Below, piece after piece: positions 3,119 to 49,639 of a DNA stretch of 64,000 nt. Within the stretch, counting starts at the first letter, position 1; each line of letters opens with the position of its first letter. The translations under genes were made by a program, and so were the position numbers. The notes below the pieces were generated by a model. It was not told where the DNA came from, did no database searches, and saw only the letters and a list, made by a program, of their open reading frames with translations. The DNA is from a virus (taxonomy: Duplodnaviria; Caudoviricetes). The stretch spans positions 1 through 64,000 of IMG/VR virus record IMGVR_UViG_2791355405_000002. One strand, given 5' to 3'.

Positions 3119-3157
3119 AAGCCACACAGGCTCTGACGATCCGGCCGTCGGTGCTGG

Positions 3158-8173: not shown

Positions 8174-8201
8174 ACAGCCCTCCCCGGCTCGGATCGGGGG
8201 C

Positions 8202-8230
8202 ATGGTAGCCGCGATCATCCGAATGACCGT
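8202..8230 (-). promoter_or_regulatory. Putative late promoter ACGGTC-17-TACCAT for the portal gene
   Basis: Same spacing and TACCNT -10 as other members of the class. Confidence 0.45.
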
Positions 8231-8246
8231 TTTCACGGCATACCGG

Positions 8247-10183: not shown

Positions 10184-10185
10184 GG

Positions 10186-10458: not shown

Positions 10459-10768
10459 GGAGGGATCCTTCGGGCGTCGGGTGTGAGCCTAGCGCCGGAC
10501 AGGCGCCAGGTTGGGCGGACGAGCGGGGTAACTCCGAAGGTGCCTGGGCCTGCGGCTCCAAGGTCACCCGATCGCGTAGTTCAGCCCGACTGCACCGTGG
10601 CCGTCGATCGTCAGCATGTGGTTCCTCGGTCTCTGGTCACTGGTCTATGGTCGGCCTACGCCGGGTTCCATTCTGGCAACATCTCGGAGGCTGCGGCAGG
10701 TCGCTGACCAGCCATTTCGAGGAGACCGCGAGGGGCGCCCCATCCGACTCTGTAGCCCTGCCCGACAT

Positions 10769-13726: not shown

Positions 13727-14806
13727 GTGACGATCATGACGGCGGTCGGCTCCACCACCCTCGCCACCGACGACCCGACACTGCGCGCGGTGACCCGTCT
13801 GCGCGAGCGGCTGGGCACGGTCGCGCCTCGCGACCCGAAGACACGCCGGCTCGGGCCGCGCGTCCACCGGTTGGACCTGCTGCACGAGCTGTGCGAGGCG
13901 CAGACGTTCGAGCACGTCGTGGGGTGGCTGTCCTCCGAGCGGCTGAGTGACGGCACCCGGCGGGAGTACGCCGACGACGTCCGCCACTGGGCCCGCGCCG
14001 GCCGGGAGCTGGTGGGCACGGAACCGTGGTACCTCGGGGCGATCACCTCCGACGTCATCCCGGCGTGGCGCGCGTGGACCGATGACCTCGGGCTCGGGCC
14101 CCGGCGGGTCAACCGCCTGGCGTCGTCGCTGACTTCGCTGATCGAGTACACCAAGTTCCGCACCCGGGCGGAGATCCTCAACCCGATCACCAAGCACGAC
14201 CGGCCTGTGATCGACCCGCACGACGAGTCGGCCATGACGCCGATCCTGGAGGTGCCGGAATTCCAGGCCGTCGTCGCGCAGGCGCAGACACCCCGGCAGG
14301 CCCTCGTCCCGGTGCTCATCTACACCCTGGCCGGCCGGGTATCGGAGTGCTGCGCGGCAGGCAAGCACCACATGGACTCCACCGGCGGGGAGTGCAAGCT
14401 GGACCTGACCCGCAAGGGCGGCAAGGGCCGGAAGTTCACGCTGCCGCCGCTGCTGTGCGAGCTGGGCGCCCGCTGCTGGGGTGATCGGGAGTCCGGGCCG
14501 CTGCTCCTGGACGACGACGACCGGCCGATGGACCGGCACGCGGTGGACCGGCTGCTGAACCGCCTCGGCCGCGCGGCCGGCGTCCTTCCCGGCCGGGACC
14601 TCACCCCGCACGTGCTGCGCGCGAGCAAGCTGACGCACATGTACGACCAGGGCGTGAAGCCCGACGACATCAGGCGGTTCGCCGATCACAGCCACATCGC
14701 TACGACCATGCGGTACATCCGACGACGGGACGACGAGGCCCTCAAGCGCGAGCACGCGGCGGCGGCCGTCCACGTCTACGAAGGCCTGGTGGACCGGTTC
14801 CTGTGA
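13727..14806 (+). CDS. Tyrosine recombinase (XerC/D-like)
   Basis: GRVSE, RKGGK, TPHVLR, DHSHIATTMRY catalytic motifs. Confidence 0.9.
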   Translation: MTIMTAVGSTTLATDDPTLRAVTRLRERLGTVAPRDPKTRRLGPRVHRLDLLHELCEAQTFEHVVGWLSSERLSDGTRREYADDVRHWARAGRELVGTEPWYLGAITSDVIPAWRAWTDDLGLGPRRVNRLASSLTSLIEYTKFRTRAEILNPITKHDRPVIDPHDESAMTPILEVPEFQAVVAQAQTPRQALVPVLIYTLAGRVSECCAAGKHHMDSTGGECKLDLTRKGGKGRKFTLPPLLCELGARCWGDRESGPLLLDDDDRPMDRHAVDRLLNRLGRAAGVLPGRDLTPHVLRASKLTHMYDQGVKPDDIRRFADHSHIATTMRYIRRRDDEALKREHAAAAVHVYEGLVDRFL

Positions 14807-17003: not shown

Positions 17004-17369
17004 TCAAGCGACGAGACGGCCCGGAGGGGAGACCTCGGGCGGCTGCGGCGCGGCAACGTTCGGCCGGGTCACGAACCAGGCGATGAGCAGCATGACGGCG
17101 CCGACGACCTTGGCCTGCGTCTCGGAGTCCCACTCGAACGCGAAGTAGCTCGTGAGCGACACTCCCGCGACCACGAGGCCGTTCAGTGCCGCGATGATGC
17201 CGTCGCCGACCTGGACGGCGACGATGACGCCGAGCACGGCCGCGACGATGGCCGTGACGATGGACTGGAGCTGCGGGTCGAACCCGAGGCCGAACGCGCT
17301 GAGGAGCTGCCACAGCGCTCCGACGGCTGCCAGCCACGCGGCCGGCTCCCTGCCGAACACCTTGCCCAT
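17004..17369 (-). CDS. Holin-like membrane protein
   Basis: VFGREPAAW N-terminus, four hydrophobic segments, AGGAGG RBS. Confidence 0.7.
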   Translation of the reverse strand: MGKVFGREPAAWLAAVGALWQLLSAFGLGFDPQLQSIVTAIVAAVLGVIVAVQVGDGIIAALNGLVVAGVSLTSYFAFEWDSETQAKVVGAVMLLIAWFVTRPNVAAPQPPEVSPPGRLVA

Positions 17370-17421
17370 GATTGCCTCCTTGGGGATCAATCCCGGGGCA
17401 GAGTAGGGCAGATCCTCTGAT

Positions 17422-17769: not shown

Positions 17770-19149
17770 TCATCCGATCGTGCGCGCCGCCGATGCCAGG
17801 CCCTTGGACGAGGTCGTGCCGGTCACCGTCGGCTTCACGATCCGCTGGTGCCAGGCCGGCCACACCATCGCGTCCAGCCGGTCAGGACTCCAGTCCAGCT
17901 CGTCGTACCAGGTGCACATCTGGTCCTCCAGCTCCGCGAACTCCCCGACCATGTGCCAACGGCCTTGCTCAGACAACGCGCTGACCGGCTCCGCGCGGAC
18001 CTTCTTCCCCCGCGTCGCGCGCACGACCTTGATGGGGATGTTGACGCCCATGGCGTCGGCGGCGGCGCGGATCGTGTTGACGGCCATGTCCCCACCGAAG
18101 TTCACCTCACAGCAGATGTCGTCCGCCTCGTAGTCGACGGCCGCCTGCACGGCCCGGCGGCCCCAGCCGTCCGGGGAGAGGTGGCACGTGCGGTCGGCGA
18201 GGACGTAGCCGTGGGCGAGCATCGCCGGACGCTCCCGGCCGTTCACCACGCGCAGGTGCTCCTGCATCGCCTTGCCCACCACCACGATTCCCTGCTCGCC
18301 CCGACCGCCCGAGGGGTCCACGCCGACGGACGTGCGCATGAGGGGCGGCAGGTCGCTCGGGCGCAGCCGGTGCTCGTCGATCATCGGCCGGGTCCACAAC
18401 GCGTTCTCGTCGGCGTCGATGATCTCGGCGTGGAGTTCCTGGCGGCCGATCTGCGTGCCCGCGTAGGCGTCCTCCAGCGCGTTGCGGATGTCCTCCGGTA
18501 GGTGCGGGTTGTCGTACATGGACGCCCGGGTGCGCACCACGTTGGCTATCTCGCCGGCCGCGAGTTTCTTGATCAGGGTCCGGGGCTTCGGGGTGGTGGA
18601 GGCTATCCAGTGCGGACGCGGCCCGGTGCGAAGACCGAACCGCATCTGGTCCCAGGTCTGGTCGAGGTAACGCCAGGCGGCCAATTCCTCCAGCCACGAG
18701 AGGCAGCGGTTACCGCCGGAGCGCAAACGCTCGACGTCCTCGGGGCTGTGCGCGCCGAAGATCTTCGCCTCGGAGCCGTTCGGCCACCGGATGACCGTGC
18801 CGCCCTGGACGGTGCGCATCACGGCCTCGGGGCTGTGCACCCGAAGGCCCGACGGTCCGGCGTAGCAGGACGTCGCCGCGTCGCCGAGGGTCGGCGCGAT
18901 GATGCCTATCCAGTGCGGGATCGGGCCGGGCAGGCACGGCGGGCCCATGACGTGCTCGTGGACGTACCGCGCGCAGGCGTCCGTCTTCCCCGCACCACGG
19001 CCGGCGAGGAGCAGCCAGCCGTACCAGTCGCCATCTGGCGGGACCTGGTGGGGCAGCGGAGTCCAGCGCGGCTCGGTCACCAACCGCGCGTGCATCAGCA
19101 GCTTCTCGGCCGCCGCGCGGCTCAGCATCCGATCCACCATGAGGGTCAT
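17770..19149 (-). CDS. terL: Terminase large subunit
   Basis: LLLAGRGAGKT Walker A, WLEELAAW Walker B, VGVDPSG and SPDRLDA nuclease motifs; start 19149 or 19140. Confidence 0.92.
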   Translation of the reverse strand: MTLMVDRMLSRAAAEKLLMHARLVTEPRWTPLPHQVPPDGDWYGWLLLAGRGAGKTDACARYVHEHVMGPPCLPGPIPHWIGIIAPTLGDAATSCYAGPSGLRVHSPEAVMRTVQGGTVIRWPNGSEAKIFGAHSPEDVERLRSGGNRCLSWLEELAAWRYLDQTWDQMRFGLRTGPRPHWIASTTPKPRTLIKKLAAGEIANVVRTRASMYDNPHLPEDIRNALEDAYAGTQIGRQELHAEIIDADENALWTRPMIDEHRLRPSDLPPLMRTSVGVDPSGGRGEQGIVVVGKAMQEHLRVVNGRERPAMLAHGYVLADRTCHLSPDGWGRRAVQAAVDYEADDICCEVNFGGDMAVNTIRAAADAMGVNIPIKVVRATRGKKVRAEPVSALSEQGRWHMVGEFAELEDQMCTWYDELDWSPDRLDAMVWPAWHQRIVKPTVTGTTSSKGLASAARTIG

Positions 19150-19298
19150 TGTCGGCTGCGCGGCGGCGCGCGGTTCCCGGAGCACGACGGAGCCCGTGCC
19201 TGCTGCTGGGCGGCACGGGCTCCGCGCGGCGGGCTGCGGGGTAAGGCGGTCCCCGCTCCGGTCCTTGAGGCCTGCCCGCGAGGCAGCCTGTGGGGCGT

Positions 19299-20408
<1,110 letters not shown>

Positions 20409-21224
20409 TCAGGTCGTCGCGGCTTCGGGCAGCAGTCCGAGGGCGCGGGCCTTGCGCAGAGCCTCGGGCAGCCGCGTCCCCTTGTCCATCCACGCCACGT
20501 CCAGCCGCCGGTATGCCTCGGACAACCTGGACGCGCACGAGCCCGGGGGCATCTCCAGCCTGGTCGCGGTCTGCGACAAAGACGCGCCCTTCTCCAGCTC
20601 CAGCAGGATGCTGACCTGCGTGTCAGACAGATGAACCGGGGACTGCGCGCTGCTCGGCCGGGGCGGAGGCTGGTTCCTCAGCAAGCCGCGCATCCGGGCC
20701 TCGCGTAGGGCCACCTCGCGGCGGACCGGCGGCGGGAGCTGTGCGACGCCGAGCGCGGCGTACGCCTCAGCAGTGAGGGACTTCACGGTCCGGTGGCTGA
20801 CGCCCCACGCCTTGCACACCTGCTCCTGCGTGCGCCCCGCGTCGAACGCGCGCAGGAGCCTCACGTGGGGTTCGGCGAGCTGGACCGGCCGGCGCGTGGC
20901 GGCCTCGGCGTCCATGCGTTCCCGGTTGCCTCGCTTGCAGGCGGCGCAGATGGGTTCGTCCCGCTTGAGGTGGCGGCGGTAGGCCGCCAGCAGACCGCAG
21001 TCCTCGTACGGGCCTATGTGCCCGGCCAGCAGGCCGTTGCGGACGGCCTGCGCGGCGGTGGCCACGCCCATGACCGCGTAGATGCGGGCGCAGGTCTTCC
21101 GTACGACGCCCGGGGCCCCATCGGTCTTGCGGGCGATGTCCGCGCAGGTGTGGCCGGTGGACAGCAGCCACAGGATGTGACGTTGACGCTCGGTCAGGAC
21201 GATGGGCTGCGGTGCGGTGTCCAC
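20409..21224 (-). CDS. Regulator with three LuxR-type HTH repeats and a Cys/His zinc motif
   Basis: LTERQRHIL, LAEPHVRLL, LSDTQVSIL repeats; CGLLAAYRRH...CAAC. Confidence 0.75.
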   Translation of the reverse strand: MDTAPQPIVLTERQRHILWLLSTGHTCADIARKTDGAPGVVRKTCARIYAVMGVATAAQAVRNGLLAGHIGPYEDCGLLAAYRRHLKRDEPICAACKRGNRERMDAEAATRRPVQLAEPHVRLLRAFDAGRTQEQVCKAWGVSHRTVKSLTAEAYAALGVAQLPPPVRREVALREARMRGLLRNQPPPRPSSAQSPVHLSDTQVSILLELEKGASLSQTATRLEMPPGSCASRLSEAYRRLDVAWMDKGTRLPEALRKARALGLLPEAATT

Positions 21225-21338
21225 CTCGGCCGCTCCTTCCGTAGATTGGGGTGGGCCCCGGGTCACGTCCACTGACCCGGGGCCCTTGTCGACCGGCGAC
21301 GTCCCGGGCAGAATCACCGGGCCTGCCAGGACACTTTC

Positions 21339-21378
21339 ATTTAGTTAAATCCCCGATTGATGGTTTTGCTAAACCATC
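21339..21378. promoter_or_regulatory. Two degenerate AT-rich palindromes upstream of the LuxR-like gene
   Basis: ATTTAGTTAAAT and GATGGTTT-TGCT-AAACCATC. Confidence 0.55.
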
Positions 21379-21384
21379 TGGGCC

Positions 21385-22467
21385 TCACAGCTCCAGCCAA
21401 AGCGGGTTGTCCAGCGACCAGCGCACGGTGGTCTCGATGGACTTCTCCAGCGGCACAGGCGGCTCCCACCCGAGGCGGGCCATGCGGGAGCCGTCCAGGG
21501 CGTAGCGCAGGTCGTGGCCGGGGCGTGAGGCGTGGAAGGCGATGGGCTCGATGAGGTCGTCCACCACGGCGGAGTCCAGACCCATAGCCTCCCCCACCAG
21601 GTGCACCAGCTCTACGTTGTTCACCTCGCGCTCGCCGACGATGTTGTACCGCTCCGGCCGGGTGAAGGCGCCGTCTCGGTACTGCGCCGGGCCCATGGCG
21701 ATGCGTATGGTCTCGCCGCCGAGGGTGGTCACCTCGGGCTCGTCCTCGGTGTACCGCCGCGTCAGGAACAGCCAGGCGTCAGCCAGATTCCGTGCGTGCA
21801 GGTAGAAGCGGGAGCCGGGGGTGCCGTCGGGCGCGGTGTGTACCAGGAGCGGACGACCTGCGCGCAGACACTTGATGATCTTCGGCAGGAACTTCTCGCC
21901 GTCCTGCATCTCGCCGATGATGTTCATGGTGTTGGTCAGGACGACCGGCACGCCGTAGGTCCGCCAGTAGCTGATCGCTATGACCTCCTGCGCGGCCTTG
22001 CTCGCCGAGTACGGGTTGGACGGCACGGCCGGCTCCCACTCCGCGTGCCGGTGGTCCCCGTAGGCCGGGCCGTAGACCTCGTCCGTGGACATCTGGAGGA
22101 ACAACCGGGGCTTGATGGCCCGCGCGACCTCCAGGATGTTGAGCATCAGCGAGGTGTTGTTCTGCACGAACGTCACCGGGTGAGCGATGGAGCGGTCCAC
22201 GTGGCTCTCGCTCGCGACATTCATGATGACGTCGCAGTCCTCGAACTGGTGCAGCGTCAGCGGGTCGGCCGGGGCTCGCATGTCCCAGTGCACGACGTCC
22301 ACCCGATCCGTCCACCGCAGATCGCATACCGCCGAGGCGATCCGGGCTGGCAGGCCCTTGTGGTGGAAGCTGACCGGACAGGTGATGTCCCAGTCGGTGT
22401 TCGTCAGCAGGTGGCGCAAGAGGTGGCTGCCGACGAAGCCCGACGCACCGGTGAGCAGAACGCGCAT
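21385..22467 (-). CDS. NAD-dependent NDP-sugar 4,6-dehydratase (dTDP-glucose 4,6-dehydratase-like)
   Basis: LTGASGFVG, ASESHVDRSI, STDEVYG, NPYSASK, RPGHDLRYALD. Confidence 0.9.
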   Translation of the reverse strand: MRVLLTGASGFVGSHLLRHLLTNTDWDITCPVSFHHKGLPARIASAVCDLRWTDRVDVVHWDMRAPADPLTLHQFEDCDVIMNVASESHVDRSIAHPVTFVQNNTSLMLNILEVARAIKPRLFLQMSTDEVYGPAYGDHRHAEWEPAVPSNPYSASKAAQEVIAISYWRTYGVPVVLTNTMNIIGEMQDGEKFLPKIIKCLRAGRPLLVHTAPDGTPGSRFYLHARNLADAWLFLTRRYTEDEPEVTTLGGETIRIAMGPAQYRDGAFTRPERYNIVGEREVNNVELVHLVGEAMGLDSAVVDDLIEPIAFHASRPGHDLRYALDGSRMARLGWEPPVPLEKSIETTVRWSLDNPLWLEL

Positions 22468-22640
22468 GGCCCCTCGTCTCCTTGGTCCCTGATCGTGGCC
22501 GGATGGTAGCCAGGGACCGGAGAATCGCCGAACAGCCCAGGAAACGCAGGAACCGCCCGGTGCGGCGCCGGGCGGTTCCAGAGCTGAGGCGGTGCTCATG
22601 AGCCCGCCGTCCCGAGTGTCGTACCCAGACGGCCCGCCGC

Positions 22641-22895
22641 TTACTCGCTGGACATCTGGTCACGCACCGTCGCGTCGTAGGTGCGCTCGACGTAGAGCAC
22701 CTCCTGCTCGGTGCCGTTCGCGTAGTCGGCGCGCAGCGTCGCCAGGGCCGTCTCCAGGTACGGCTGGAACTCCTCGAACGCCGTCCGCCGGTCACCGCTG
22801 TTCGTCGTGACCGTGATCTGAACCGGCAGATTGTTGCTGGTCGCGAGCGTGTAGGTGATCCGCGTGGTCTCGAACCCGTCAGTGGGAAGGGGCAC
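22641..22895 (-). CDS. Hypothetical protein
   Basis: GTG with AGGAGG RBS. Confidence 0.65.
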   Translation of the reverse strand: MPLPTDGFETTRITYTLATSNNLPVQITVTTNSGDRRTAFEEFQPYLETALATLRADYANGTEQEVLYVERTYDATVRDQMSSE

Positions 22896-22960
22896 GTCTG
22901 CCTCCTGTGTCGTGGGTGAGTCCCGGATGATGCCACCGAACGCCACGCGCACCTACCAGC

Positions 22961-23593
22961 TCACTCCGGCTCCTCTGCCTCTCCGACGACCTCGCCCTCC
23001 AGGACGCGCAGGTGCGCGCCGGCGGCCTCCAGCATCCGCTGCCGCTGCGCGGGCTCCAGCTCAACCGCGTTGGCGCCGGCCAGGATCGCCTCCACGACCA
23101 CGGTCGTCTCTTCGTCGACCCGGCGGTCCAGGGCGATGGTCAGCTTCTCCGAGGCGTCCGTGCCGTCGATCTTCGCCTGGCGTTCCTCGATGCGCATCAG
23201 CCGGTCGATGGCCGCGAGGACGGGCCCGCTGTCCCGCAGCGGATTGCCCTCCTCATCGCGGACGATTTGGCCCGCGTGCAGCACGTAGTGCGGCCGGGCG
23301 AGCACCGCGTGGACCTGGCGGCGCAGCCCGTCCAGCCGCATCCGCGCGGCCTCACGGTATTCCTCCAGCCCCATGCCGAGTTCCTTGTTGGCCTGCTTCA
23401 GCGCGCGGGAGACGTCCACGCACGCGGCGGCGGCCGACGGGTTGCCCTCGGAGTCCAGGTAGTGCGGGGCCATCTGCTCAGCGACCTGCTGCCAGCTCAG
23501 GCCCCGGTTCTTCAGTTCGATGGCCTTCGCGCGCCGCTGCGCCACCATCGCCCGGTGGCTCGGCTGCTGGTTGGGTGGATCACCCTTCGCCAT
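22961..23593 (-). CDS. terS: Terminase small subunit-like HTH protein
   Basis: RRAKAIELKNRGLSWQQVA HTH; LAAIDRLMRIEERQAKIDG segment typical of actinophage TerS. Confidence 0.65.
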   Translation of the reverse strand: MAKGDPPNQQPSHRAMVAQRRAKAIELKNRGLSWQQVAEQMAPHYLDSEGNPSAAAACVDVSRALKQANKELGMGLEEYREAARMRLDGLRRQVHAVLARPHYVLHAGQIVRDEEGNPLRDSGPVLAAIDRLMRIEERQAKIDGTDASEKLTIALDRRVDEETTVVVEAILAGANAVELEPAQRQRMLEAAGAHLRVLEGEVVGEAEEPE

Positions 23594-23614
23594 AGTCCTT
23601 AGCCTCCCTAACGG

Positions 23615-24517
23615 TTAACGCGGTTCACGCAGGACGCCCTTGGTGCGCTCGCGGTACTCCCGGGCCCGGCTGATCTCCTCGGCCTCGCTGCCGCACTTAG
23701 TCATCGCGGTGCGCATGTAACTGACGACCGAGATCCGCTCGGCTCCGCAGGTCTCGCAGTACGCCGTGCGCTTCTCCCCGCAGGCACAGACGAGGGCCGT
23801 GTTGCCGTGCCACTGGTGAGCGTCCATCAGGATCAGGTCACCGTCCTGGAGATCGACCGCGACGCGGAACTCCGGGAAGACGAACCGGCCGCCGGTGTAC
23901 TCGCCCCGTCGCAGACAGAAGATCGTACTGAACCCCTTGTCCAGGTCACCCTTGTCCGTGTGGACGCCGGTCGGGTACGTGTTGTTGACAGTGATCGTCG
24001 TGAACGGGGTGTGTGGGACGACCCAGTCCGGATGCGTCTGCTCGATCTCCTCCATCTGCGCCGCGTACCGCTCGGGCACGTGCGTGCGCATGTTGTCCGC
24101 GACGGCTTGGAGCGCCGGGCGCAGCGCCTCCCACCTGGGGAGGTTCCGACCGGTCCACGCCGTCAACCGGCAGAACTTGAACGTGCCGTTCGGGTCGAAC
24201 GAGCCGAGGATGGATGAGCTGACGTACTTGAAGTACTGGCGTTTCTGTTCCCCCGGCCGGACGGCCTGTGAGCCCGAGGCCGGGCCCCGGTTGTGGGTTT
24301 TGTCGCCGCGCAGCGAATGCAGGATCTCGTACTGCTCCTCGGTCACGACGTCGCGCATCGCGCCGGGCAGGTAGACGCACAGCGGCTGCCCGTTGGGCAT
24401 GAACACCCGGGACGGGCCGGTCAGCAGCACGTTGTAGGCGTCGTCGCCGATGACCTTGCCGATCTTCTCGTCCAACTCCTGCTTGCTGATGCGCGAGCGC
24501 AGGCGAATGGAGATCAC
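23615..24517 (-). CDS. TET/JBP-family 2OG-Fe(II) dioxygenase
   Basis: FTTITVN, HTDKGD (HxD), HQWHGN and ERISVVSY motifs; GTGA overlap. Confidence 0.85.
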   Translation of the reverse strand: MISIRLRSRISKQELDEKIGKVIGDDAYNVLLTGPSRVFMPNGQPLCVYLPGAMRDVVTEEQYEILHSLRGDKTHNRGPASGSQAVRPGEQKRQYFKYVSSSILGSFDPNGTFKFCRLTAWTGRNLPRWEALRPALQAVADNMRTHVPERYAAQMEEIEQTHPDWVVPHTPFTTITVNNTYPTGVHTDKGDLDKGFSTIFCLRRGEYTGGRFVFPEFRVAVDLQDGDLILMDAHQWHGNTALVCACGEKRTAYCETCGAERISVVSYMRTAMTKCGSEAEEISRAREYRERTKGVLREPR

Positions 24518-25089
24518 CAGGTCACCTCCAGGGCAACGGGCGGGAAGACGTCGCGCACCTCGGCCACCATCTCCGCCAGGCTGTACTGCTCCACATCGAT
24601 GCACCGCAGCCTGACGCCCGGGGCGCCGGCGGCCCACTCCGATATGCGCTGAGCCCGGGTGGCCGCGCCCTTGCGCCAGGACGGGTTCTGCTTCGCGCCG
24701 CGCTCGCGCCACCGTGCGTCCAGTAGCGCCGGCGAGGCCATCAGCTCCACCACCGTCACCGCGACGCCCTGTCCGGCGAGGCCTCCGAGGAAGGGCCGCG
24801 TGGCCAGGCGAGCGCCCTCACCGAGGGCGAAGTGGACGTAGGCAGCCGACAGGAACTGAAGTGCCCGGGGCCCTATGTCCATGGCCAGGGCGTCGGTGCC
24901 GGGGAAGTCCTCGCGGGGCACTCCGAGTTCCAGGCCGACGGTGCGGCCGGTCGCCGGGTGGTTCAGCCGCGTGTGAGGGACGGCGTGGTGACGGCTCACC
25001 TCAAGGTCCCAGCCGGTGCGCAACTCCCGCGCCAGCGTGGACTTGCCCACCCCGGGCGGGCCGACGATGTAGAGCAGCTCGCTGATCAC
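24514..25089 (-). CDS. P-loop nucleotide/DNA kinase (5hmU DNA kinase-like)
   Basis: YIVGPPGVGKST, FPGTDALAM, EGARL and QNPSW motifs; inside the modification operon. Confidence 0.75.
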   Translation of the reverse strand: MISELLYIVGPPGVGKSTLARELRTGWDLEVSRHHAVPHTRLNHPATGRTVGLELGVPREDFPGTDALAMDIGPRALQFLSAAYVHFALGEGARLATRPFLGGLAGQGVAVTVVELMASPALLDARWRERGAKQNPSWRKGAATRAQRISEWAAGAPGVRLRCIDVEQYSLAEMVAEVRDVFPPVALEVTW

Positions 25090-25922
25090 AGACCCTCCCC
25101 GGCCAGACGCGCCGCGAGACGCTGAGCAGCGGCCGGCGCTGTGGAGTACCCGGAGCGCCCGAAGCCCGTCAGGGCCCACACCCTCGGCTCCACCTCGCAC
25201 GCGGCAGGGCCCGCCGGCGGGGTGTACCTCACGCCCTCCCGGTAGACCCAGGGCGCCTCGGGGTCGACCAGCCCCTCGTGGCACATGCGCGAGAGGATGC
25301 GTTCAGCTCGCTGCCGGGCACCGGAGGCGGTCGACGCCTTGGAGGCCCCGACCCGCGTGAACGTCCCGTCCCAAGCCGCCGTGTGGCTGAGCCGGTCGGT
25401 GACGCGCAGCAGAGCGAGCGGCCCTGGCCCGGCGAGGTGTCTGCCGGGCGCCTCCCATACGCCTCCGTAGGTGAGTGCCCGCGATGCGCCGGTCGCGGAC
25501 CGGGCCGTGGAGAGTACTAGGGCGTCCGTCTCGGTCCGGGTGCCGTCGGCGAGTGTGACAGCCACGACGTGGCCCGCCCCCTTCCACGCGGTGACGTGTT
25601 GGGCCACATCCGGGTCGACCAGAGGCCCGAGAGGGTCGACGAGGTAGTGGTCACCCTGCCGGACCGTACGCCCGCGCCGGAGATCCTTGACCTCGGCGGA
25701 GTCGTCGACCAGCCACCCGTGCCTGCCGTACCAGGCCAGAGCCGCCCGCACGTCGGTTCGCTGGTCGCCCGTCCACCAGGCGGTCCGGGTGAAGGCGAAC
25801 GCGCACCGGCTCGCCGCGCTCTGCGAGTACCCGTCGGCCACCGTCACATCGTGCCCGCGTTCACGCAGTGCACGGGCCACGCAGCTTCCGGCGATCCCCG
25901 CGCCGGCCACCATCACTCTCAC
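25086..25922 (-). CDS. FAD-dependent oxidoreductase
   Basis: VAGAGIAG Rossmann motif; C-terminal TGFGRSG. Confidence 0.82.
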   Translation of the reverse strand: MRVMVAGAGIAGSCVARALRERGHDVTVADGYSQSAASRCAFAFTRTAWWTGDQRTDVRAALAWYGRHGWLVDDSAEVKDLRRGRTVRQGDHYLVDPLGPLVDPDVAQHVTAWKGAGHVVAVTLADGTRTETDALVLSTARSATGASRALTYGGVWEAPGRHLAGPGPLALLRVTDRLSHTAAWDGTFTRVGASKASTASGARQRAERILSRMCHEGLVDPEAPWVYREGVRYTPPAGPAACEVEPRVWALTGFGRSGYSTAPAAAQRLAARLAGEGL

Positions 25923-26836
25923 TGCGGTGTCCTCTCAGGTATACGGCCGGTGTCCCGGTAGACCTTCCGGCGCCCGGCGTCCACCCCGTTCCACCCGTTC
26001 AGCTCTCCGAGGTAGGCCCTCGGCAGCTCCTGGAGACGGGCGGCATAGGCGGCTCCGGCCAGCTCGCTGGGGACCTGGTCGAGCTGATGCTGCATCTTGT
26101 CGATGTCGTGGCCCGGGTAGTAGCCACCCCGGCTCATCGAGTGGAAGTCGCACAGTGACGTCTCAGCGGTCTCGACGCTGACCGAGGGCACCGCCCCGGC
26201 CATGAGGCTCACCAGGCCGTCGGAGACTCGGTTGAGTTCCCGAACAGCCGCAGGGCCGTTGCCGGACGGCAGGCCGGAGTACAGCAGTCCCAGGCCCTTG
26301 CGAGGGCCGGACGAGTGGGCGTGCCCCATGTCCGGCGCCGCGACGTTCGCCCCGCATACCTGTTGCAGCATCTCGCAGGTCTTGAAGGCGGCCCAGCGGC
26401 CGTTGCCCGGGATGCTCAGGAGCCGGCCGGAGAGCATCGCCCAGTTGTCCCGGGGGCCGCCGCCGTCCAGACCCCGCATGAGCCAGCCGCTCAGGCCTCT
26501 GGGGTCTTCGCGGGCAACTTGCTGGACAGCGGAGAGGTGGCGGTGCAGCGCTCTGCGGGACCAGTGGCCGCGCCGCTCGGTGGCCACCGGCAGATCCATG
26601 ACAGCGTCGGAGGCTCGGGCCGGGTCGGGGACGGCCGCGAAAGCACGCAGTGCGGAGCCGAGGTGGTAGTAGGCGACGTGGCACACGACCAGCCACACCC
26701 GTTGTTCGTCCGTCAGGGACAGGCTGTCGGCCATCTGCCGCAGCACCGGGTACACCGGGTCCATGTCCCGGGTGCTCGTCTGCAACCGGTGGAAGGCGAG
26801 GTAGTCGTCCAGCAGCGCGCTGTTCGGTTCGCTCAC
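25919..26836 (-). CDS. Amino acid:DNA transferase (aGPT-Pplase2-like)
   Basis: DMDPVY, AYYH, ERRGH, GNGRWAAFK and ETSLCDF...YYPGHDI motifs. Confidence 0.78.
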   Translation of the reverse strand: MSEPNSALLDDYLAFHRLQTSTRDMDPVYPVLRQMADSLSLTDEQRVWLVVCHVAYYHLGSALRAFAAVPDPARASDAVMDLPVATERRGHWSRRALHRHLSAVQQVAREDPRGLSGWLMRGLDGGGPRDNWAMLSGRLLSIPGNGRWAAFKTCEMLQQVCGANVAAPDMGHAHSSGPRKGLGLLYSGLPSGNGPAAVRELNRVSDGLVSLMAGAVPSVSVETAETSLCDFHSMSRGGYYPGHDIDKMQHQLDQVPSELAGAAYAARLQELPRAYLGELNGWNGVDAGRRKVYRDTGRIPERTPQ

Positions 26837-27663
26837 GCCGCATCAGCCGGGGCCGCGTAGATCTCCTCGCCCCGGGCGAGGCAGTCCGCCAGCGTCAAGC
26901 CCGAGTCGGCCCCGTCCATCACCGCCACGGCGACCCGGGCCGCCCGCAGTACGACCTCGCTCTGGGTCATGGCGCCGAAGTGCTCGCGCAGCGCCAGGAT
27001 GCACCGGCCCAACTCGTCGGCCTCGGCGGTCGGCATGGCGAGGAAGATGTCCCGCACGCCGCGTGACTCGTACGGCTGGCTGTTCTCGCCGCCGTGGGAG
27101 TCCATGCGCGCCTGGCGTTCCTCGGGGTCGTCGTTGTAGCCGGCGACCGCAGGGGCGGTGTACTCGACGACGTCCTCCTCCTCGTACCGGGCCAGGATCG
27201 AGTCGGCTTCCTCGTCGGTGTAGCCGGTGCCGGCGGGGCCGCTCTCCAAGGAGCCGAGGATGGCGGCCAGGGCCTCCTCGTCATAGGCACCGTCGTCGGC
27301 CGCCTTGTTGTCGACCAGGTTGATGCGCTTGGCCGTGTCGTCGTCGCACTCGATGAGGTGGGAGAGCGCCGTCGGGTCGTCGGCGTCCACGTTGATGCAG
27401 AGCTGGCACGGCCTGTCGTTGGCCAGTTCCCAGTCCCGGCAGGCGTCACGGCCGGACTCCTCGTGCCGCAGCAGCGCCAGGTAGGTGTGGTTCCCGGCGA
27501 GGATCGTCATCGTCTCGCCCTGCCGGCGGACGGTGAGGGGCTTGTACTGGCCGTTCGCGCGCAGGGAGTCCAGGATCGTCTCCACGTTGCCCCGGCGCGC
27601 GTTGCCCTCGAACGGAGTGAGATCCTCCAGCGAGACCTGTTCGGTTCCGATGGTCGTGGTCAT
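26833..27663 (-). CDS. ParB-like N-terminal domain protein
   Basis: NARRGNV...GQYKPL...ILAGNHT, LVDNKA. Confidence 0.85.
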   Translation of the reverse strand: MTTTIGTEQVSLEDLTPFEGNARRGNVETILDSLRANGQYKPLTVRRQGETMTILAGNHTYLALLRHEESGRDACRDWELANDRPCQLCINVDADDPTALSHLIECDDDTAKRINLVDNKAADDGAYDEEALAAILGSLESGPAGTGYTDEEADSILARYEEEDVVEYTAPAVAGYNDDPEERQARMDSHGGENSQPYESRGVRDIFLAMPTAEADELGRCILALREHFGAMTQSEVVLRAARVAVAVMDGADSGLTLADCLARGEEIYAAPADAA

Positions 27664-27761
27664 GGCCGCCCCTTCGCCTGGTCGTCGGACGCGGCGATGT
27701 TAAGACCGGACCGGGGCATGATCGTTCCGGTGCTGTGGCCCCGTGAGCGGAGCGAGCGGTG

Positions 27762-27800
27762 CACGACGAAGCCCGGGGCCGTGAGGGCTCCGGGGCTCGG
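27762..27800 (-). terminator. Hairpin terminator
   Basis: GAAGCCCGGGGCC...GGCTCCGGGGCTC imperfect stem. Confidence 0.5.
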
Positions 27801-27815
27801 TGGTTCGTCGGGTGG

Positions 27816-28280
27816 TCAGAGGCAGGTGGACCGCTTGGTCCGGCCGGTCTTCCGCCAGGGCCCGAGCAGTGCGACGACGGCCCGCAGGGCGGCCCGCATG
27901 GCCGGGGCGTCGGGGTCCTCGAACCTCCCCGCCTTGCGCAAGGGGTAGTTGTCCTGCTCCGGGTCGCCGGTCTTCGGCGCCCACTCCAGCCGGGTGCCGT
28001 CGGGCCCCAGCTCCTCCAGCGCCGTCTCCGCCCGGCTCAGCACCGTGCGCACGGAGGTGAGCGCCTCTCCGCTGTCCCGGCCCCGATCGGCCGACGCGCC
28101 GGGAACCTCGGTCACGGTGACCTGGGGCGAGTCGTCGCGGTCGTAGAACGCGTCCGTGATCCACCTCGTTGCTACGTCGGTCAGTTCACGGTCCTCGTAG
28201 TACTCGTCTCCGTGCTCGGCGTCAGGGTGGCCGCGCCACTCGACGTCCACGATCAGCCTCGTGCGCCTCGGCTCAGCCAT
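27816..28280 (-). CDS. Hypothetical protein
   Basis: Coupled ORF with RBS. Confidence 0.65.
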   Translation of the reverse strand: MAEPRRTRLIVDVEWRGHPDAEHGDEYYEDRELTDVATRWITDAFYDRDDSPQVTVTEVPGASADRGRDSGEALTSVRTVLSRAETALEELGPDGTRLEWAPKTGDPEQDNYPLRKAGRFEDPDAPAMRAALRAVVALLGPWRKTGRTKRSTCL

Positions 28281-28575
28281 CTGCCTGTCCCTCCTCGGTG
28301 ACGACCAGGACCCTGTGGCCGGCCGGGAACTCGCCCGTCAGCGTCGCTCCGGTCTGGCTGCACGCCGTGATGCGCTTGCCCTCCCGGGCCGTGACGGTCC
28401 AGGCGATACCGCGCATCGGCATCTCATGCACAATGCCCGCGCCGTGCACTCGGCCGCCCTCTCCGGCGAAGTAGGCGGCCCCGGTGCCGGGGTTGACCCA
28501 CGTGTCCCCGACGGCCAGTTCGTCGGCCGGGCGCTCTCGCACGTCGCCCCATGTGTACGGGTGATCTGTGCTCAT
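28273..28575 (-). CDS. Hypothetical protein
   Basis: ATGA overlap; start-associated motif upstream. Confidence 0.65.
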   Translation of the reverse strand: MSTDHPYTWGDVRERPADELAVGDTWVNPGTGAAYFAGEGGRVHGAGIVHEMPMRGIAWTVTAREGKRITACSQTGATLTGEFPAGHRVLVVTEEGQADG

Positions 28576-28934
28576 TCCTCGTTCCTCGCTTCCTTGGTCG
28601 GCAGTTGCAGCGGCGGCCGGATGCAGTGCGCCCAGTCCTTCGGCGCGCACTTGTCGCTCCGCTCCAAGGGCCAGGGCTTCGCTTCCCGGCCGCACCTCCC
28701 GCAGACGTACATCCACGAGCCGTCCTCGTTGCGGTACGCGTGGCGCCCGGCGTCCTTGTTGGCCCGCAGGCGCTGGGCAACGGCGTACTTCGTTCCCGAG
28801 GCCCGGCACTCCAGACGCCGCGCGCTGGCCAGGGCCCGCTCGTTGCCCCGGTGCCGGTACAGCTTCCCCGTGGCGGTGAAGGAGACCGGGTTACGGCACA
28901 GGGGGCAGGTGCCCCCGCTGCTCGCCCTGCCCAT
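28572..28934 (-). CDS. Zn-binding hypothetical protein
   Basis: CPLC...H...C and CGRC motifs. Confidence 0.65.
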   Translation of the reverse strand: MGRASSGGTCPLCRNPVSFTATGKLYRHRGNERALASARRLECRASGTKYAVAQRLRANKDAGRHAYRNEDGSWMYVCGRCGREAKPWPLERSDKCAPKDWAHCIRPPLQLPTKEARNEE

Positions 28935-31024: not shown

Positions 31025-34000
31025 TCAGTCCTTCGCGTAGCAGGAGGCCCAGTCACGGGCCGCTTTGGAGGCCCCGGCCGTGATCGGCACGCCCTTGAAC
31101 TCGAACGTGAACGCCTCCAGCACGGCCTCCTTGACGCCCTCGGCCATGTGTTCGGGGACGCACAGGACGACCTCGTCGTGCACGACGCAGCGCAGCCACT
31201 CCAGGGCCTCGGGGATCATGTCGACCAGGCGCAGCAGCGCCTCGCACATGATGTCCCGGGCGCCGCCCTGGCCCATGAGGGCCGGGGCCTGCGTCCAGGC
31301 ACGGTCGGGGTTGCAGCGCATCTTGCGACCGAACCCGTTGTCCAGCATCTCGCCGGCCGCCGCCCGTTCCCGGACCTCGGTCCGCCAGGCGCACAGCCCG
31401 GGGTACTGCGCGTTCATCTGGTCGTCGAACTTCTGCGCCAGCTCCAGCTCCACACCGCTGTTGGCGATGCCCTTCACGGACATGCCGTAGTTCCAGCCGT
31501 GGCCGATGCGCTTGGAGTTGTCGCGCCACTCGCCATCGTGGCGGCCGAACACGGCATCGGCGATGCGCGAGTGGGCGTCTTCGCCGGGAGCGAAGTTCGC
31601 CATGTACGCCGGGTCCTGGCAGTGCCCGGCGATGGCGCGCATGTCGACCTGGTCCAGGTCGAAACAGATCAGGACGTGGCCGTCGTCGGCGATGAGGGGT
31701 CGCCTCTGCGTGACCTTGCCGCCGCGCTTGGCCATGTTGGTGACCGAGGGGCGGACGTACGCCCACCGGCCGGCGCCCTGAAGGTCGCCGACCTGCGGGT
31801 GGATCCGGTCGCCGACGAGGTGGTCCATGATCTCGGCGTACTTCTGGACCGACGAGGTCACGGTGATGATGTGGCCGCACATCTCGCGCAGGGCGTCTAC
31901 GTCGGCGCCGCGCTCGGCGAACATGCGCAAGACGTTCGGGTTGAGCATGGCGGGCACCTGCCGGGCCCCGGAGCCCTTGCCCACCATGTACGACGCCTCG
32001 CCCAGCGCGTCCTTGTTGAGGCTGATCAGCCCGGAGGCCGTCTTGGGGTAGTGCACCGCACCCCGGTCGGCGAAGGCCTTGATGATCGCCTCACGGCCTT
32101 CGTTGGTGGACAGCGGGGCCTTGACGGACTCGTCGGTGAAGACGCGGTTCTTGCCCCGGCCCCTACCGACGGACTTGGTCAGGGGTACGCCGCAGTGCTC
32201 GTGCAGCCACTCCAGGGACTCCTGCCGCTTGGCCGCCTCCGCGTCGACCAGCTCGCGCAGGACGGGGACGTCGACCTTCCAGCCGGTCAGGGTGGGCCGG
32301 TGCTGGATGTGGGCGACCCGCATCTCCCGGCGGACGTAGTCCGAGGGCTCGCCCAGAGCGCGCCGCACGCCCCGGGTGGCCTGGAGATCGCCGCTGAAGT
32401 ACACGCTCAGCTCGTTGACCGGGATGCGCCCGTACCCGAGGTCCGTGCGCTCGGCCTTGTCCAGTTTGCGGCCGCCGGCCTCCTCCGGACCGTACTTGAA
32501 GGCGAGCGCGGCCAGGTCGTCCGTCTTGCCGGGCAGGCCGTTGCGCTCGGCTACCTGGTCCAGGCCGTAGTAGCCCTTGGTCGCCCACGGCTTCTCGTGC
32601 GCGGCGCCGGGCGGGTCGATGGTCTGGACCCACCGCAGGGTGTCCATGGTCTTCGCGGCCAGCTTGTCGTAGTCGGCGCCGTGGTGACGGGCGAGCGCCA
32701 TCAAGTCGAACCCGAGCAGGTTGTGGCCGTACAGCTCGTCGGCGTCCTCCAGCCGCTTGATCAACTCCTCCACGGAGTTGACGACGACCTCGGTGCCGTC
32801 CTCGGTGACGTAGCCGGCGAGGCGGACGTACGGGTCGCCTCCGAGATCCTTGTGGACGAACAGGCGCTTGGCGCTGTGGGTCTCCAGGTCGAACCCGATG
32901 ACGCCGCCGGCGCGCGGCGGGGTGGCCGCGTCATCCGGAGCCGGGGACGGGGCGGGGACGGTGGCCGCGCGGGGAGCCTGATCAGCTTCCGCTTCCGCGA
33001 ACGGATCACCCGCGAAAGGGTCCGCGTCCGGGTCGGTCAGAGGACGTGTACCCGCTGTACCCTCTACCCCTGTTCCTCCTATGTGTGAGCCAATTTCTCG
33101 GTTATAGGGAGGAGAGGGTACAGGGGGTACACCATTGTCCTCGGTGGGGTTGACCTCGTCTTTTCCGTTCGGGTCCTGGAAGCGCACCCCGAGCCACGCC
33201 TGGTAGTTGACGCCCTTGGGCTCGTGACCGCCCAGAGTCGATCGCCCGTCCCGCGCCCGGATCTTCTTCCGCTGCACGCCGTTCCGCGCGCACTCGTCGT
33301 GGCTTCCGAATCGGGACACGAACGTGCGGTCCGTCCATTCCCGGTGACCTTTGTCCTCCAGGTACCGGTTGAAGACCTCGTGCAGCTCCCGGGCGAGGAT
33401 GTGGGAGTTCCAGTCGAACGTCAGGCAGTCCCCGATGAACGACAGAATCAGGTCCGACTCCTTGCGCCACTCCAGCGTGTCGTCCTCCACCCGCTTCGGC
33501 GGCGGCGGCATGATCTGTCCGGCCGCGTACCACTTGCGGGCGCCCTCCACGGCCCACGCCAGGACGGCCGCCGACACCCGCTCATCCGTCGCGAGGCGCT
33601 GCCGCAGGGTTCCGTCACCGGGCTTGTCATTCGGGCCCGTGCACGGCTCCCCAGCCTTGCGGAAGGTGAACGGGAAGCACAGCAGCGCCAGACGCCGCCA
33701 CGTACCGTGGTCGGTTTCGTCCACCAGAGGCCTGTGGTTCGTGTTGATGATCAACGTGTGCGACGTCGTGAAGGTGACCGGGTCCTGCCTCATCCGGCGG
33801 GCCTTGATGGCCTTCGTACCGGCGAGCTGCTTGGCCCGGTTGACGTCCAGTCGCTTGGCCTCCGGGGTCTCCTCCAGTACCGCGAGCCGGGCCCCCATGA
33901 AATCCATCATCTCCGTGGGGTGGTTGTCGCTTGCGTTCCCGAGCAGGGCCCGGTGGGACACCACTGTGTGGTATCCGTCCTTCTCGCCGGCCGCGCGGGC

Positions 34001-35362
34001 GAGCGCGTCCATGACCGTGCTCTTGCCGTTGGAGCCGCCGCCCTGGAGCAGGAGGATGATGTCGTCTGGGGGGATGTGGCCGGTGAGCGCCTGCCCCATT
34101 CGGAGCTGGAACCAGTCGATCACGTCATCCGGCACGGCCTCCAGAGCCTTGTCCCAGTCAGGGTGCCGGGCGCCCGGGACATAGTCCGCCTCCGTGATCT
34201 TCGTCATGAGCCGGTCGGGGTCATGCGGCGTGAGCACGCCGGTGCGCAGGTCCAGGATGCCGTTCTGGCAGTTGAGCGCGTCAGGGTCGTAGTCGAAATC
34301 CGCCGCGTGAGCGACCAGACTGCCCTTGGACAGCTTCATCAGGTTGCCCAGCTTGGACGCGGACAGGGCCCCGCGCCAGCCGTCCATCTCCGCGCGGTAA
34401 TCCTTGCTCGGCTCGGCGCGCTGCTTGTCCAGCACCCGCTGGAACCCGGAGAGCGCCCATTGGCGGATCTCCTCCAACACCACCGGCTCGGGGCACTCGC
34501 CCCAGGTCTTGCCGTTCCAGCGCATCCACCCGAGGCCGTACGCCCAGCGGTACGTGCCGTCCAGAGCTTCGGAGCACACGGTGTCGGCGAGAACGGCGTC
34601 ACTGAATGCCGCGTCGCGGGAGTTGTCGCTGGGGGTCTCCCGGGTGGCTGCGTCGCGCAGACCCTCAAGCGTTCCGCCGGCGTGGAAGTAGTCGTCCACG
34701 CCCTTGACGGCCTGGCCGTCGACTTCCTCTGGGACGATCAGATACCGGATGTCGGCAGCACCCTTGGACTCCAGCCACGCCCCCAGCCGCCGCATGGCCT
34801 TCAGAACGCTCATGTTGTGGCGCGCGTCGGAGTCGAAGCAGATCACGACTGTGCGGTCCTTGAGGGGGATGTCCTCCCAGTCGCCGAGGGTGCCGTGTCG
34901 TGCACGCCAGTTGTAGACGCCCGAGATGGTGACGACTGGAAGTCCTTTGGACGCTAGGCAGTCCGCCTTTTTCACACCCTCGGTGATCCACAGAGGCGCC
35001 GAGACGGTACGGACAGCAGTCGCCATCAGCGGCGGTACGTCCAGGCGAGCTTTGCCGACCGCAGCCGCGTACTTCACAGGCTTCTCATCGCGCACCTGCG
35101 GCTGGCCGGGCTTGAACATTGCGCCGATCTGCTCACCGGTTACTCGGTAGATCGGGATGAACAGGCCCGGGAACGCCGTGTCTTCGCGCCAGGCCCACAC
35201 CGGAATGGACGCCTCGCGCAGCCGCGCGCGGTCCTCGTCGGTGCCGTACAGCGTCTCGTACCCGCGAGCGTCGCGGATCTCCGGGGCGATCTCGCTGGCG
35301 TCCAGTTCCGCCAGGTGGTGATCTGACAGCTGCCCCGCGTTCGCTTCCACGTACGTGGTCAT
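31025..35362 (-). CDS. Fused DUF3854/TOPRIM primase - D5/SF3 helicase - 3'-5' exonuclease - family A DNA polymerase
   Basis: WITEGVKKAD, ICFDSD, KGVDD; GGGSNGKST; FDLET, GHNLLGFD; DLDQVDMR, KRIGHGWNYG, VVHDE in one 1445-aa ORF. Confidence 0.9.
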   Translation of the reverse strand: MTTYVEANAGQLSDHHLAELDASEIAPEIRDARGYETLYGTDEDRARLREASIPVWAWREDTAFPGLFIPIYRVTGEQIGAMFKPGQPQVRDEKPVKYAAAVGKARLDVPPLMATAVRTVSAPLWITEGVKKADCLASKGLPVVTISGVYNWRARHGTLGDWEDIPLKDRTVVICFDSDARHNMSVLKAMRRLGAWLESKGAADIRYLIVPEEVDGQAVKGVDDYFHAGGTLEGLRDAATRETPSDNSRDAAFSDAVLADTVCSEALDGTYRWAYGLGWMRWNGKTWGECPEPVVLEEIRQWALSGFQRVLDKQRAEPSKDYRAEMDGWRGALSASKLGNLMKLSKGSLVAHAADFDYDPDALNCQNGILDLRTGVLTPHDPDRLMTKITEADYVPGARHPDWDKALEAVPDDVIDWFQLRMGQALTGHIPPDDIILLLQGGGSNGKSTVMDALARAAGEKDGYHTVVSHRALLGNASDNHPTEMMDFMGARLAVLEETPEAKRLDVNRAKQLAGTKAIKARRMRQDPVTFTTSHTLIINTNHRPLVDETDHGTWRRLALLCFPFTFRKAGEPCTGPNDKPGDGTLRQRLATDERVSAAVLAWAVEGARKWYAAGQIMPPPPKRVEDDTLEWRKESDLILSFIGDCLTFDWNSHILARELHEVFNRYLEDKGHREWTDRTFVSRFGSHDECARNGVQRKKIRARDGRSTLGGHEPKGVNYQAWLGVRFQDPNGKDEVNPTEDNGVPPVPSPPYNREIGSHIGGTGVEGTAGTRPLTDPDADPFAGDPFAEAEADQAPRAATVPAPSPAPDDAATPPRAGGVIGFDLETHSAKRLFVHKDLGGDPYVRLAGYVTEDGTEVVVNSVEELIKRLEDADELYGHNLLGFDLMALARHHGADYDKLAAKTMDTLRWVQTIDPPGAAHEKPWATKGYYGLDQVAERNGLPGKTDDLAALAFKYGPEEAGGRKLDKAERTDLGYGRIPVNELSVYFSGDLQATRGVRRALGEPSDYVRREMRVAHIQHRPTLTGWKVDVPVLRELVDAEAAKRQESLEWLHEHCGVPLTKSVGRGRGKNRVFTDESVKAPLSTNEGREAIIKAFADRGAVHYPKTASGLISLNKDALGEASYMVGKGSGARQVPAMLNPNVLRMFAERGADVDALREMCGHIITVTSSVQKYAEIMDHLVGDRIHPQVGDLQGAGRWAYVRPSVTNMAKRGGKVTQRRPLIADDGHVLICFDLDQVDMRAIAGHCQDPAYMANFAPGEDAHSRIADAVFGRHDGEWRDNSKRIGHGWNYGMSVKGIANSGVELELAQKFDDQMNAQYPGLCAWRTEVRERAAAGEMLDNGFGRKMRCNPDRAWTQAPALMGQGGARDIMCEALLRLVDMIPEALEWLRCVVHDEVVLCVPEHMAEGVKEAVLEAFTFEFKGVPITAGASKAARDWASCYAKD

Positions 35363-49634: not shown

Positions 49635-49639
49635 GGGCG

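Follow-up and report, generated by a model that had tools for sequence, protein, structure and literature searches.

A probable post-replicative thymidine hypermodification operon with an exchangeable tailoring cassette in an actinobacterial siphophage genome

We analyzed a 64,000-nucleotide stretch of viral DNA (Duplodnaviria; Caudoviricetes; IMG/VR record IMGVR_UViG_2791355405_000002, positions 1 to 64,000), referred to here as the window, which forms the first 64 kb of a source contig of 92,743 bp with a G+C content of ~70%. The contig is a tailed-phage genome, namely, that of a high-GC actinobacterial siphophage of ~93 kb. On the minus strand of the window, between the replication gene and the lysis/packaging genes, lies an operon that encodes, in this order, a ParB-like protein, an amino acid:DNA transferase, an oxidase dependent on flavin adenine dinucleotide (FAD), a P-loop kinase, and a Tet/JBP dioxygenase (TET), followed by a helix-turn-helix (HTH) protein of 210 amino acids (aa). 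The large terminase gene is located on the same strand, and the operon lies upstream of the packaging module. Its features are as follows.

26833-27663, minus strand: ParB-like protein, 276 aa (phrog_723, "ParB-like," 1.7e-38)
25919-26836, minus strand: amino acid:DNA transferase (AADT, or aGPT-Pplase2), 305 aa (PF18724, ADDT; 64.7 bits, 1.4e-17)
25086-25922, minus strand: FAD-dependent oxidase, 278 aa (PF01266, DAO; 46 bits, 6.8e-12)
24514-25089, minus strand: P-loop DNA kinase of the 5-hydroxymethyldeoxyuridine (5-hmdU) DNA kinase type, 191 aa (PF18751, Ploopntkinase3; 83.8 bits, 1.5e-23)
23615-24517, minus strand: Tet/JBP dioxygenase (5mYOX), 300 aa (PF12851; 62 bits, 5.3e-17)
22961-23593, minus strand: helical HTH protein, 210 aa (HTH_23, 0.041; phrog_645, 2.2e-13)
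25090-26854, minus strand: exchangeable tailoring cassette (transferase plus FAD oxidase), from the ParB 3' end to the kinase start codon

The first five genes are chained by four GTGA stop/start overlaps, which were read from the sequence: the ParB stop and the transferase start meet at GCGGCGTGAGCG, the transferase stop and the FAD oxidase start at GCAGTGAGAGTG, the FAD oxidase stop and the kinase start at CTGTGATCAGC, and the kinase stop and the TET start at TGGTGATCTCC. The TAA stop codon of TET is followed by 21 nucleotides (nt) containing GGGAGG and then by the ATG of the 210-aa gene. Coordinates and junctions agree with the initial annotation, a model's reading of the sequence alone, which had described five genes chained by GTGA overlaps and a sixth gene 21 nt later. 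The overlaps fix the true starts of the kinase (24514-25089) and TET (23615-24517) genes, as opposed to those of the longer open reading frames (ORFs) listed, and imply that the coupled genes are co-translated. This tight translational coupling is kept across 60+ related loci. A consensus scan of positions 21000-28600 revealed no promoter-like sites and a single terminator-like site, which was on the wrong strand; shuffled sequences gave no fewer.

Four of the proteins passed the curated Pfam cut-offs (26.2 bits for PF18724, 27 bits for PF18751, and 34.9 bits for PF12851, as well as that of PF01266), and the ParB-like protein was recognized through PHROGs. These matches support the enzyme functions assigned initially, namely, transferase, FAD oxidoreductase, kinase, and TET/JBP. 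TET is a predicted thymine dioxygenase. Its Fe(II)/2-oxoglutarate ligands H186-x-D188 and H237, together with R261, are invariant among 37 relatives, and a CxC-x8-CxxC cluster at residues 244-257 is conserved. Beyond an invariant C275, 25 residues form a tail, which, likened by description only, may correspond to the C-terminal extension of 5mYOX176 past its last conserved cysteine, C280. A search with PF12851 identified a single Tet_JBP gene in the whole genome, i.e., in the assembly around the contig (9.1 Mb, 736 contigs, completeness rating of 99.99%). A profile of the 37 relatives matched no PDB chain at an E value of ≤1; structures of TET/JBP proteins solved to date lie beyond the reach of a sequence search.

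The ParB-like protein had no Pfam match at an E value of <0.1. Its profile aligns solely with the nucleotide-binding domain (NBD) of Noc, Spo0J, and ParB chains in the PDB, over profile positions of about 8-103. The AlphaFold2 (AF2) model, with a predicted local distance difference test score (pLDDT) of 85.9, comprises the N-terminal NBD of ParB/Srx type (residues 1-125), two short helices (129-160), a linker of low confidence (161-211; pLDDT of 56-72), and a helical C-terminal domain (CTD; 212-265). The best Foldseek matches of this model were the ParB proteins of Myxococcus xanthus (7BNK), Bacillus subtilis (6SDK), and Caulobacter crescentus (7BM8), with E values of ~1e-6, and neither the comparison of the profile with the PDB nor the model revealed a canonical HTH domain of ParB. 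Experiments have shown that a cognate ParB activates a phage T-dioxygenase on double-stranded DNA (PMC13229309). By analogy with that work, the ParB-like protein, the gene of which lies upstream of TET in the same operon, is predicted to be the activator of the dioxygenase. The role suggested for it initially, that of coupling modification to packaging, is an older hypothesis that gives way to the published experimental one.

The transferase contains the motifs GNGRWAAFK (W148, K152) and ETSLC (E225, T226, C229). Crystallography of PaMx11 gp46 showed glycine held by Trp146 and Lys150 and the base and a metal held by Glu243, Thr244, and Cys247 (PMC11472151). The residues of the two motifs correspond to these in the order given and with equal spacing, as established from the alignment with the PDB homologue and the numbering in that paper, and both motifs are conserved among family members. 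Phages of Gordonia, Mycobacterium, Rhodococcus, and Microbacterium carry AADT genes to which the transferase is 41-46% identical. For the FAD protein, the best PDB matches were 8Z2O and 8Z79 (PaMx11 gp47), which align end to end (residues 3-273 versus 5-285; E value of 2.8e-4). Gp47 is an N-alpha-glycinylthymidine oxidase, or "flavin-dependent lyase" (PMC8989533), of which the FAD protein appears to be a distant homologue. The latter carries a GAGIAG dinucleotide motif, and its residues W49/W50, R232, Y233, and R256 align with gp47 Trp51/Phe52, Arg242, Tyr244, and Lys268, respectively. Arg242 is thought to bind the glycine carboxylate (PMC11472151), and neither R232 nor R256 varies among 12 relatives. 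In the kinase, the Walker A motif GPPGVGKS (residues 10-17) is intact, and the protein shares 35-40% identity with genes named "adenylate kinase" in similar cassettes of cultured actinophages. The kinase also matches phrog_800 (9.1e-15), which is labeled "terminase small subunit" in PHROGs. This label looks like a misannotation that probably arose from the location of kinase genes directly upstream of the large terminase gene in many actinophages.

Taken together, these sequence comparisons make it probable that the operon encodes a post-replicative pathway of thymidine hypermodification. Once activated by the cognate ParB-like protein, TET would hydroxylate some of the thymines of double-stranded phage DNA at their methyl group, forming 5-hydroxymethyluracil (5hmU). 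The P-loop kinase would phosphorylate the 5hmU hydroxyl, and the transferase would then let a free amino acid, glycine being the most likely one, displace the phosphate through its alpha-amino group. Oxidation of the N-C-alpha bond by the FAD oxidase, followed by hydrolysis, would yield 5-aminomethyl-2'-deoxyuridine (5-aminomethyl-dU, or 5-NmdU), a nucleoside with a nominal mass of 257 (PMC8989533). Since no acetyltransferase follows, the pathway probably stops at this point, and we consider the chances that 5-aminomethyl-dU is the final base to be about even. The modified DNA would then be packaged and is expected to be resistant to host nucleases. All of these steps are proposed from homology to classes for which biochemistry has been published, namely, the T-dioxygenase with its ParB (PMC13229309) and the kinase, AADT, and FAD lyase (PMC8989533), with structures also available (PMC11472151). 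The fully post-replicative route from TET/JBP through kinase and transferase to flavoenzyme, as put forward in the initial annotation, is supported by the in silico tests and by this literature.

Several observations, which concern the tailoring enzymes and, as described below, cytosine methylation, weigh against this reading. The homology of the transferase and the FAD protein to the PaMx11 enzymes is remote (PDB E values of ~5e-4 and ~3e-4, respectively), and tblastn searches of 50,697 phage records with these two proteins gave matches in actinophages only and none in PaMx11, M6, or ViI at an E value of ≤1e-3. Furthermore, gp47 Tyr180 (the wedge) and Gln182 (the thymine reader) are not evidently conserved and align with Leu and Val, in one pairwise alignment in which this region is poorly aligned. 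The transferase might thus use an amino acid other than glycine, or the chemistry of the FAD enzyme might differ from N-C-alpha cleavage and consist, for example, of an oxidation of 5hmU or of the adduct side chain, in which case the final base would not be 5-aminomethyl-dU. Either the epimerase/dehydratase encoded 1 kb downstream or an ATP-grasp ligase encoded elsewhere in the phage could also add steps. Such a different product is nevertheless unlikely: the Trp and Lys that contact glycine in gp46 have been retained, as has the Arg that binds the carboxylate in gp47; whichever amino acid is N-alpha-linked, its N-C-alpha cleavage would give the same aminomethyl product; and the transferase and FAD genes are always paired in 11 related loci, which fits successive steps.

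A second question concerns the source of 5hmU. No ThyA-family gene was found in the whole 9.1-Mb, 99.99%-complete genome, and the sole ThyX gene (PF02511) is located on another contig and presumably belongs to the host; ThyX was for this reason rejected as the hydroxymethylase. The pre-replicative route, in which 5hmU is supplied by a ThyA-type deoxyuridine monophosphate (dUMP) hydroxymethylase, is therefore absent, and the earlier statement that the window contains no thymidylate-synthase homologue can, for the ThyA family, be extended to the entire genome. The companion statement, that the window contains no C5-methyltransferase, is literally true, but two PF00145 genes lie 0.7-3.4 kb past its end, on the same contig.

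64734-66014: C5-methyltransferase-like gene 1 (PF00145), with ENV, QxRxR, and GNAV motifs and SPIC instead of the PC dipeptide of motif IV
66317-67375: C5-methyltransferase-like gene 2 (PF00145), with canonical PPCQ and QxRxR motifs

TET could consequently act on 5-methylcytosine (5mC) made by the phage's own C5-methyltransferases, and the kinase, transferase, and oxidase would then build a hypermodified cytosine. In line with this scenario, the PPCQ and QxRxR motifs of the second gene are intact, characterized phage T-dioxygenases oxidize 5mC to some extent (PMC13229309), and the phosphorylation of 5-hydroxymethylcytosine (5hmC) has been raised as a possibility for some contigs with a C5-methyltransferase and TET that also carry a P-loop kinase and aGPT-Pplase (Burke et al., PMC8256090). 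However, both genes are found ~40 kb from TET, on the opposite strand and in another module, the early region, whereas proven phage 5mC dioxygenases adjoin their methyltransferase (PMC8256090, PMC13229309). None of the 65 related loci harbors a relative of either gene within 8 kb of TET, and a PF00145 gene is absent from two of the four related whole phage records with a similar operon (92% and 100% complete). In addition, the kinase, AADT, and FAD-lyase classes have been shown to be active only on 5hmU derivatives (PMC8989533). We therefore judge a cytosine-based pathway to be quite unlikely, although a side activity of TET on 5mC is possible. The initial annotation had itself raised the case of a dioxygenase acting on 5mC supplied by a methyltransferase encoded elsewhere; such methyltransferases do exist, but their distance and the situation in the relatives make them an unlikely source of the substrate.

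The integrase and an FtsK/TraB-like gene of the phage are consistent with what is possibly a temperate or phage-plasmid lifestyle, and a post-replicative route is compatible with any such lifestyle. In a plasmid state, a ParB would be expected to serve partition, and the cluster might then have no role in virion DNA modification and represent either a ParB for partition or regulation that adjoins metabolic genes unrelated to it or a remnant that has decayed and lost its activity. That the cluster is of this type is highly improbable, given that the ParB-like protein lacks the centromere-binding HTH domain, that no ParA was seen beside it, that all catalytic motifs are intact, that the coupling of the genes is conserved as described above, and that a similar enzyme set is present in strictly virion-forming cultured actinophages. 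Should the element be a phage-plasmid, one may speculate that ParB gating confines thymidine hypermodification to virion-destined DNA and leaves the plasmid form unmodified.

The relatives analyzed comprised 63 IMG/VR loci and two actinomycete genomes, each with a dioxygenase at least 46% identical to the TET of the window. Two cassettes dominate between the ParB and kinase genes of these relatives. The AADT and FAD oxidase of the window type were observed in 11 loci plus the window, whereas 19 loci contain another, 362-aa AADT of PF18724 along with a pyridoxal 5'-phosphate (PLP) enzyme of the PALP family. A cassette of transferase and PLP enzyme is present in the relative IMGVR_UViG_3300049172_000080. 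In this second AADT type, the glycine-contacting Trp is replaced by Leu. The three closest backbone relatives, L013, L017, and L019, all carry the PLP cassette. In blastn comparisons, they share 80-89% nt identity with the window over the genes for ParB, kinase, dioxygenase, HTH protein, lysin, and terminase, but homology stops at 26855-26867 and resumes at 25077-25089, i.e., at the 3' end of the ParB gene and at the start of the kinase gene, and the nearest relatives of the cassette proteins of the window are 46-63% identical. These boundaries mark a clean exchange of one module between members of a single phage lineage, and the relatives with the PLP cassette probably make a different base. 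More tentatively, and with somewhat less than even chances, the ParB and kinase-TET genes may form a fixed scaffold that takes alternative pairs of transferase and tailoring enzyme within one lineage; the nearest relatives with the PLP pair are 82-88% identical to the window in the flanks. If so, near-identical phages would carry chemically different thymines, and DNA chemistry would have diversified at the level of strains, presumably in response to host nucleases that recognize particular modified bases. A chromosomal, prophage-like version of the cluster was observed in Streptomyces hazeniae (L011, 6784-11341, on a 909-kb contig), where the order is ParB, AADT, kinase, an unassigned 1-kb gap, a dioxygenase with 53% identity, and a second ParB-like gene.

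The 210-aa protein, which is helical and has its HTH at the N terminus, is encoded directly after TET in 19 related loci. Its AF2 model has a pLDDT of 79.6; the best Foldseek match was the small terminase of G20c, with E values of 0.2-0.9 and TM scores of 0.2-0.3, and a VIA structural search returned generic helical hairpins only, with Z scores of ~7 that are within the noise for helical proteins. The protein is thus weakly TerS-like and a possible candidate for the small terminase or a regulator. As to the initial placement of the operon next to the small terminase gene (TerS), a gene is indeed present after 21 nt, but its identity as TerS rests on a weak HTH match and its position. The large terminase gene (TerL) lies 3.8 kb beyond the 210-aa gene, with four genes in between, namely, a small ORF and the genes for the epimerase/dehydratase, a multi-HTH protein, and the lysin. 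Other features of the phage genome are listed below.

1259-3127: major head protein
3226-6342: MuF/protease fusion
6326-8236: portal
9179-10165, minus strand: ATP-grasp ligase, between the portal and integrase regions (phrog_2599, RimK-like, 5.4e-12)
13727-14806, plus strand: tyrosine integrase, between packaging and head genes
17004-17390: holin
17770-19185, minus strand: large terminase, TerL (phrog_2, "terminase large subunit," 4.2e-22)
19299-20351: lysin (transglycosylase, NlpC/P60, and LysM)
20409-21317, minus strand: multi-HTH protein, 302 aa (GerE, HTH_23, Sigma70_r4; phrog_645 match)
21385-22599, minus strand: NAD-dependent epimerase/dehydratase, GDP-mannose dehydratase-like (PF01370, 2.6e-42)
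31025-35362, minus strand: replication protein, 1,445 aa, a primase-helicase-PolA fusion
49499-51637, plus strand: FtsK/SpoIIIE (TraB-like) gene, in the early region
85367-88885: tape measure

Both the 210-aa and the 302-aa proteins match phrog_645, which is oddly labeled "RNase E," and the two may be paralogous DNA-binding proteins. The epimerase/dehydratase gene, 1 kb downstream of the operon, keeps its position in many relatives, and no glycosyltransferase was seen beside it; the enzyme might catalyze a further DNA-modification step or be unrelated. In the TerL genes of L013 (14268-15099) and L017 (13928-14759), there is an insertion of ~830 bp relative to window positions of about 18703-18706, which is missing from the window and L019 and might represent either an intein or an inserted homing-endonuclease/intron element. 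The ORF at 9179-10567 was considered as the large terminase and rejected, since it encodes the ATP-grasp ligase and TerL is located at 17770-19185; no link of this ligase to the modification operon was seen. The domains of the 1,445-aa replication protein are DUF3854 (Toprim-like), D5_N, a DUF5906/D5-type helicase, and a family A DNA polymerase. Genes of the structural module are found at both ends of the contig, and the capsid protein is at best ~33% identical to that of any GenBank phage. IMG/VR contains close relatives, one of which is a 95.7-kb record with direct terminal repeats and a dioxygenase that is 94% identical.

The operon belongs to a known kind, and its concept, ParB dependence, and enzyme classes have been published. 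It offers a further natural example of a Tet/JBP-initiated route to hypermodified thymine, and, because every step has a characterized counterpart, the end product 5-aminomethyl-dU is unusually predictable. The five genes form a compact test case for the whole post-replicative chain, which we found published only in parts. The cassette swap between near-identical phages provides a natural pair in which the final base can be related to host-nuclease resistance; it illustrates the combinatorial picture of Lee et al. (PMC8989533), establishes no new principle, and is a modest addition.

The literature contains several related systems. Phage T-dioxygenases that depend on ParB and occur together with kinases and AADTs convert T to 5hmU in Escherichia coli and in vitro (O'Toole et al., preprint 2025, PNAS 2026, PMC13229309), and one subclass requires the neighboring ParB on double-stranded DNA (PMC13229309). 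In 2022, Lee et al. (PMC8989533) described viral contigs with a Tet_JBP gene in place of that for the dUMP hydroxymethylase, beside kinase and AADT genes, and a five-gene system of this kind was annotated in a 2025 genome note on Rhodococcus phage Tonitrus (PMC11955845). The view that no biochemical demonstration of the combination exists no longer holds for the first step (PMC13229309), whereas it stands for the complete chain, as we found in the literature neither a reconstitution of the five-enzyme chain from a Tet enzyme onward nor a report of the base in an actinophage.

The clusters of C5-methyltransferase and TET genes reported by Burke et al. (PNAS 2021, PMC8256090) resemble the operon in that Tet/JBP carries out the first, post-replicative step of hypermodification and in that some of them carry ParB, a kinase, and aGPT-Pplase. 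In these clusters, however, TET lies beside a C5-methyltransferase and 5hmC is subsequently glycosylated, whereas the window operon has neither a methyltransferase nor a glycosyltransferase as neighbor. PaMx11 (gp46-gp49; Lee et al., NAR 2022, PMC8989533; Wen et al., NAR 2024, PMC11472151) likewise combines a kinase, an AADT, and an FAD-dependent N-alpha-glycinylthymidine oxidase that act on 5hmU in DNA, and key residues of gp46 and of gp47 (Trp51, Phe52, Arg242, and Lys268) have counterparts in the window. In contrast to the window, where a Tet/JBP enzyme takes this place, PaMx11 makes 5hmU pre-replicatively by means of a dUMP hydroxymethylase; its pathway leads to 5-(acetyl)aminomethyl-dU, whereas the window is without an acetyltransferase, and the similarity is remote (E value of ~1e-4).

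Cultured actinophages, including Mycobacterium phages Phelemich and Reprobate (gp1-gp5), Gordonia phages LittleMunchkin and Wooper, and Rhodococcus phage Tonitrus (PMC11955845), encode ParB-like, Tet/JBP-like, AADT, and kinase proteins in tightly overlapping left-end genes upstream of the terminase. We found no published nucleoside chemistry for these cassettes. Phelemich and Reprobate have all five components, with an FAD homologue that is ~30% identical over 94%, whereas in Gordonia phages such as LittleMunchkin the set consists of ParB, a weakly matching Tet_JBP protein, AADT, and kinase. The Tet-like proteins of the cultured phages differ in being far more diverged, below the Pfam cut-off and, for Phelemich gp2, without a tblastn match, and their genes follow the order ParB-TET-AADT-(FAD)-kinase and directly abut the large terminase gene.

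As judged from the published description, the operon differs from 5mYOX clade C1 (5mYOX176/ParB176, PMC13229309) in its order, ParB-AADT-FAD-kinase-TET with TET last, and in its tailoring enzyme, a flavoenzyme, which is not discussed in PMC13229309. It nevertheless shares with this clade a Tet_JBP dioxygenase of ~300 aa, the C-terminal tail of which may be comparable, a ParB composed of NBD, linker, and CTD without a DNA-binding HTH and with the same nearest structures, a co-located P-loop kinase and AADT without an adjacent C5-methyltransferase, and the proximity of the terminase (PMC13229309).

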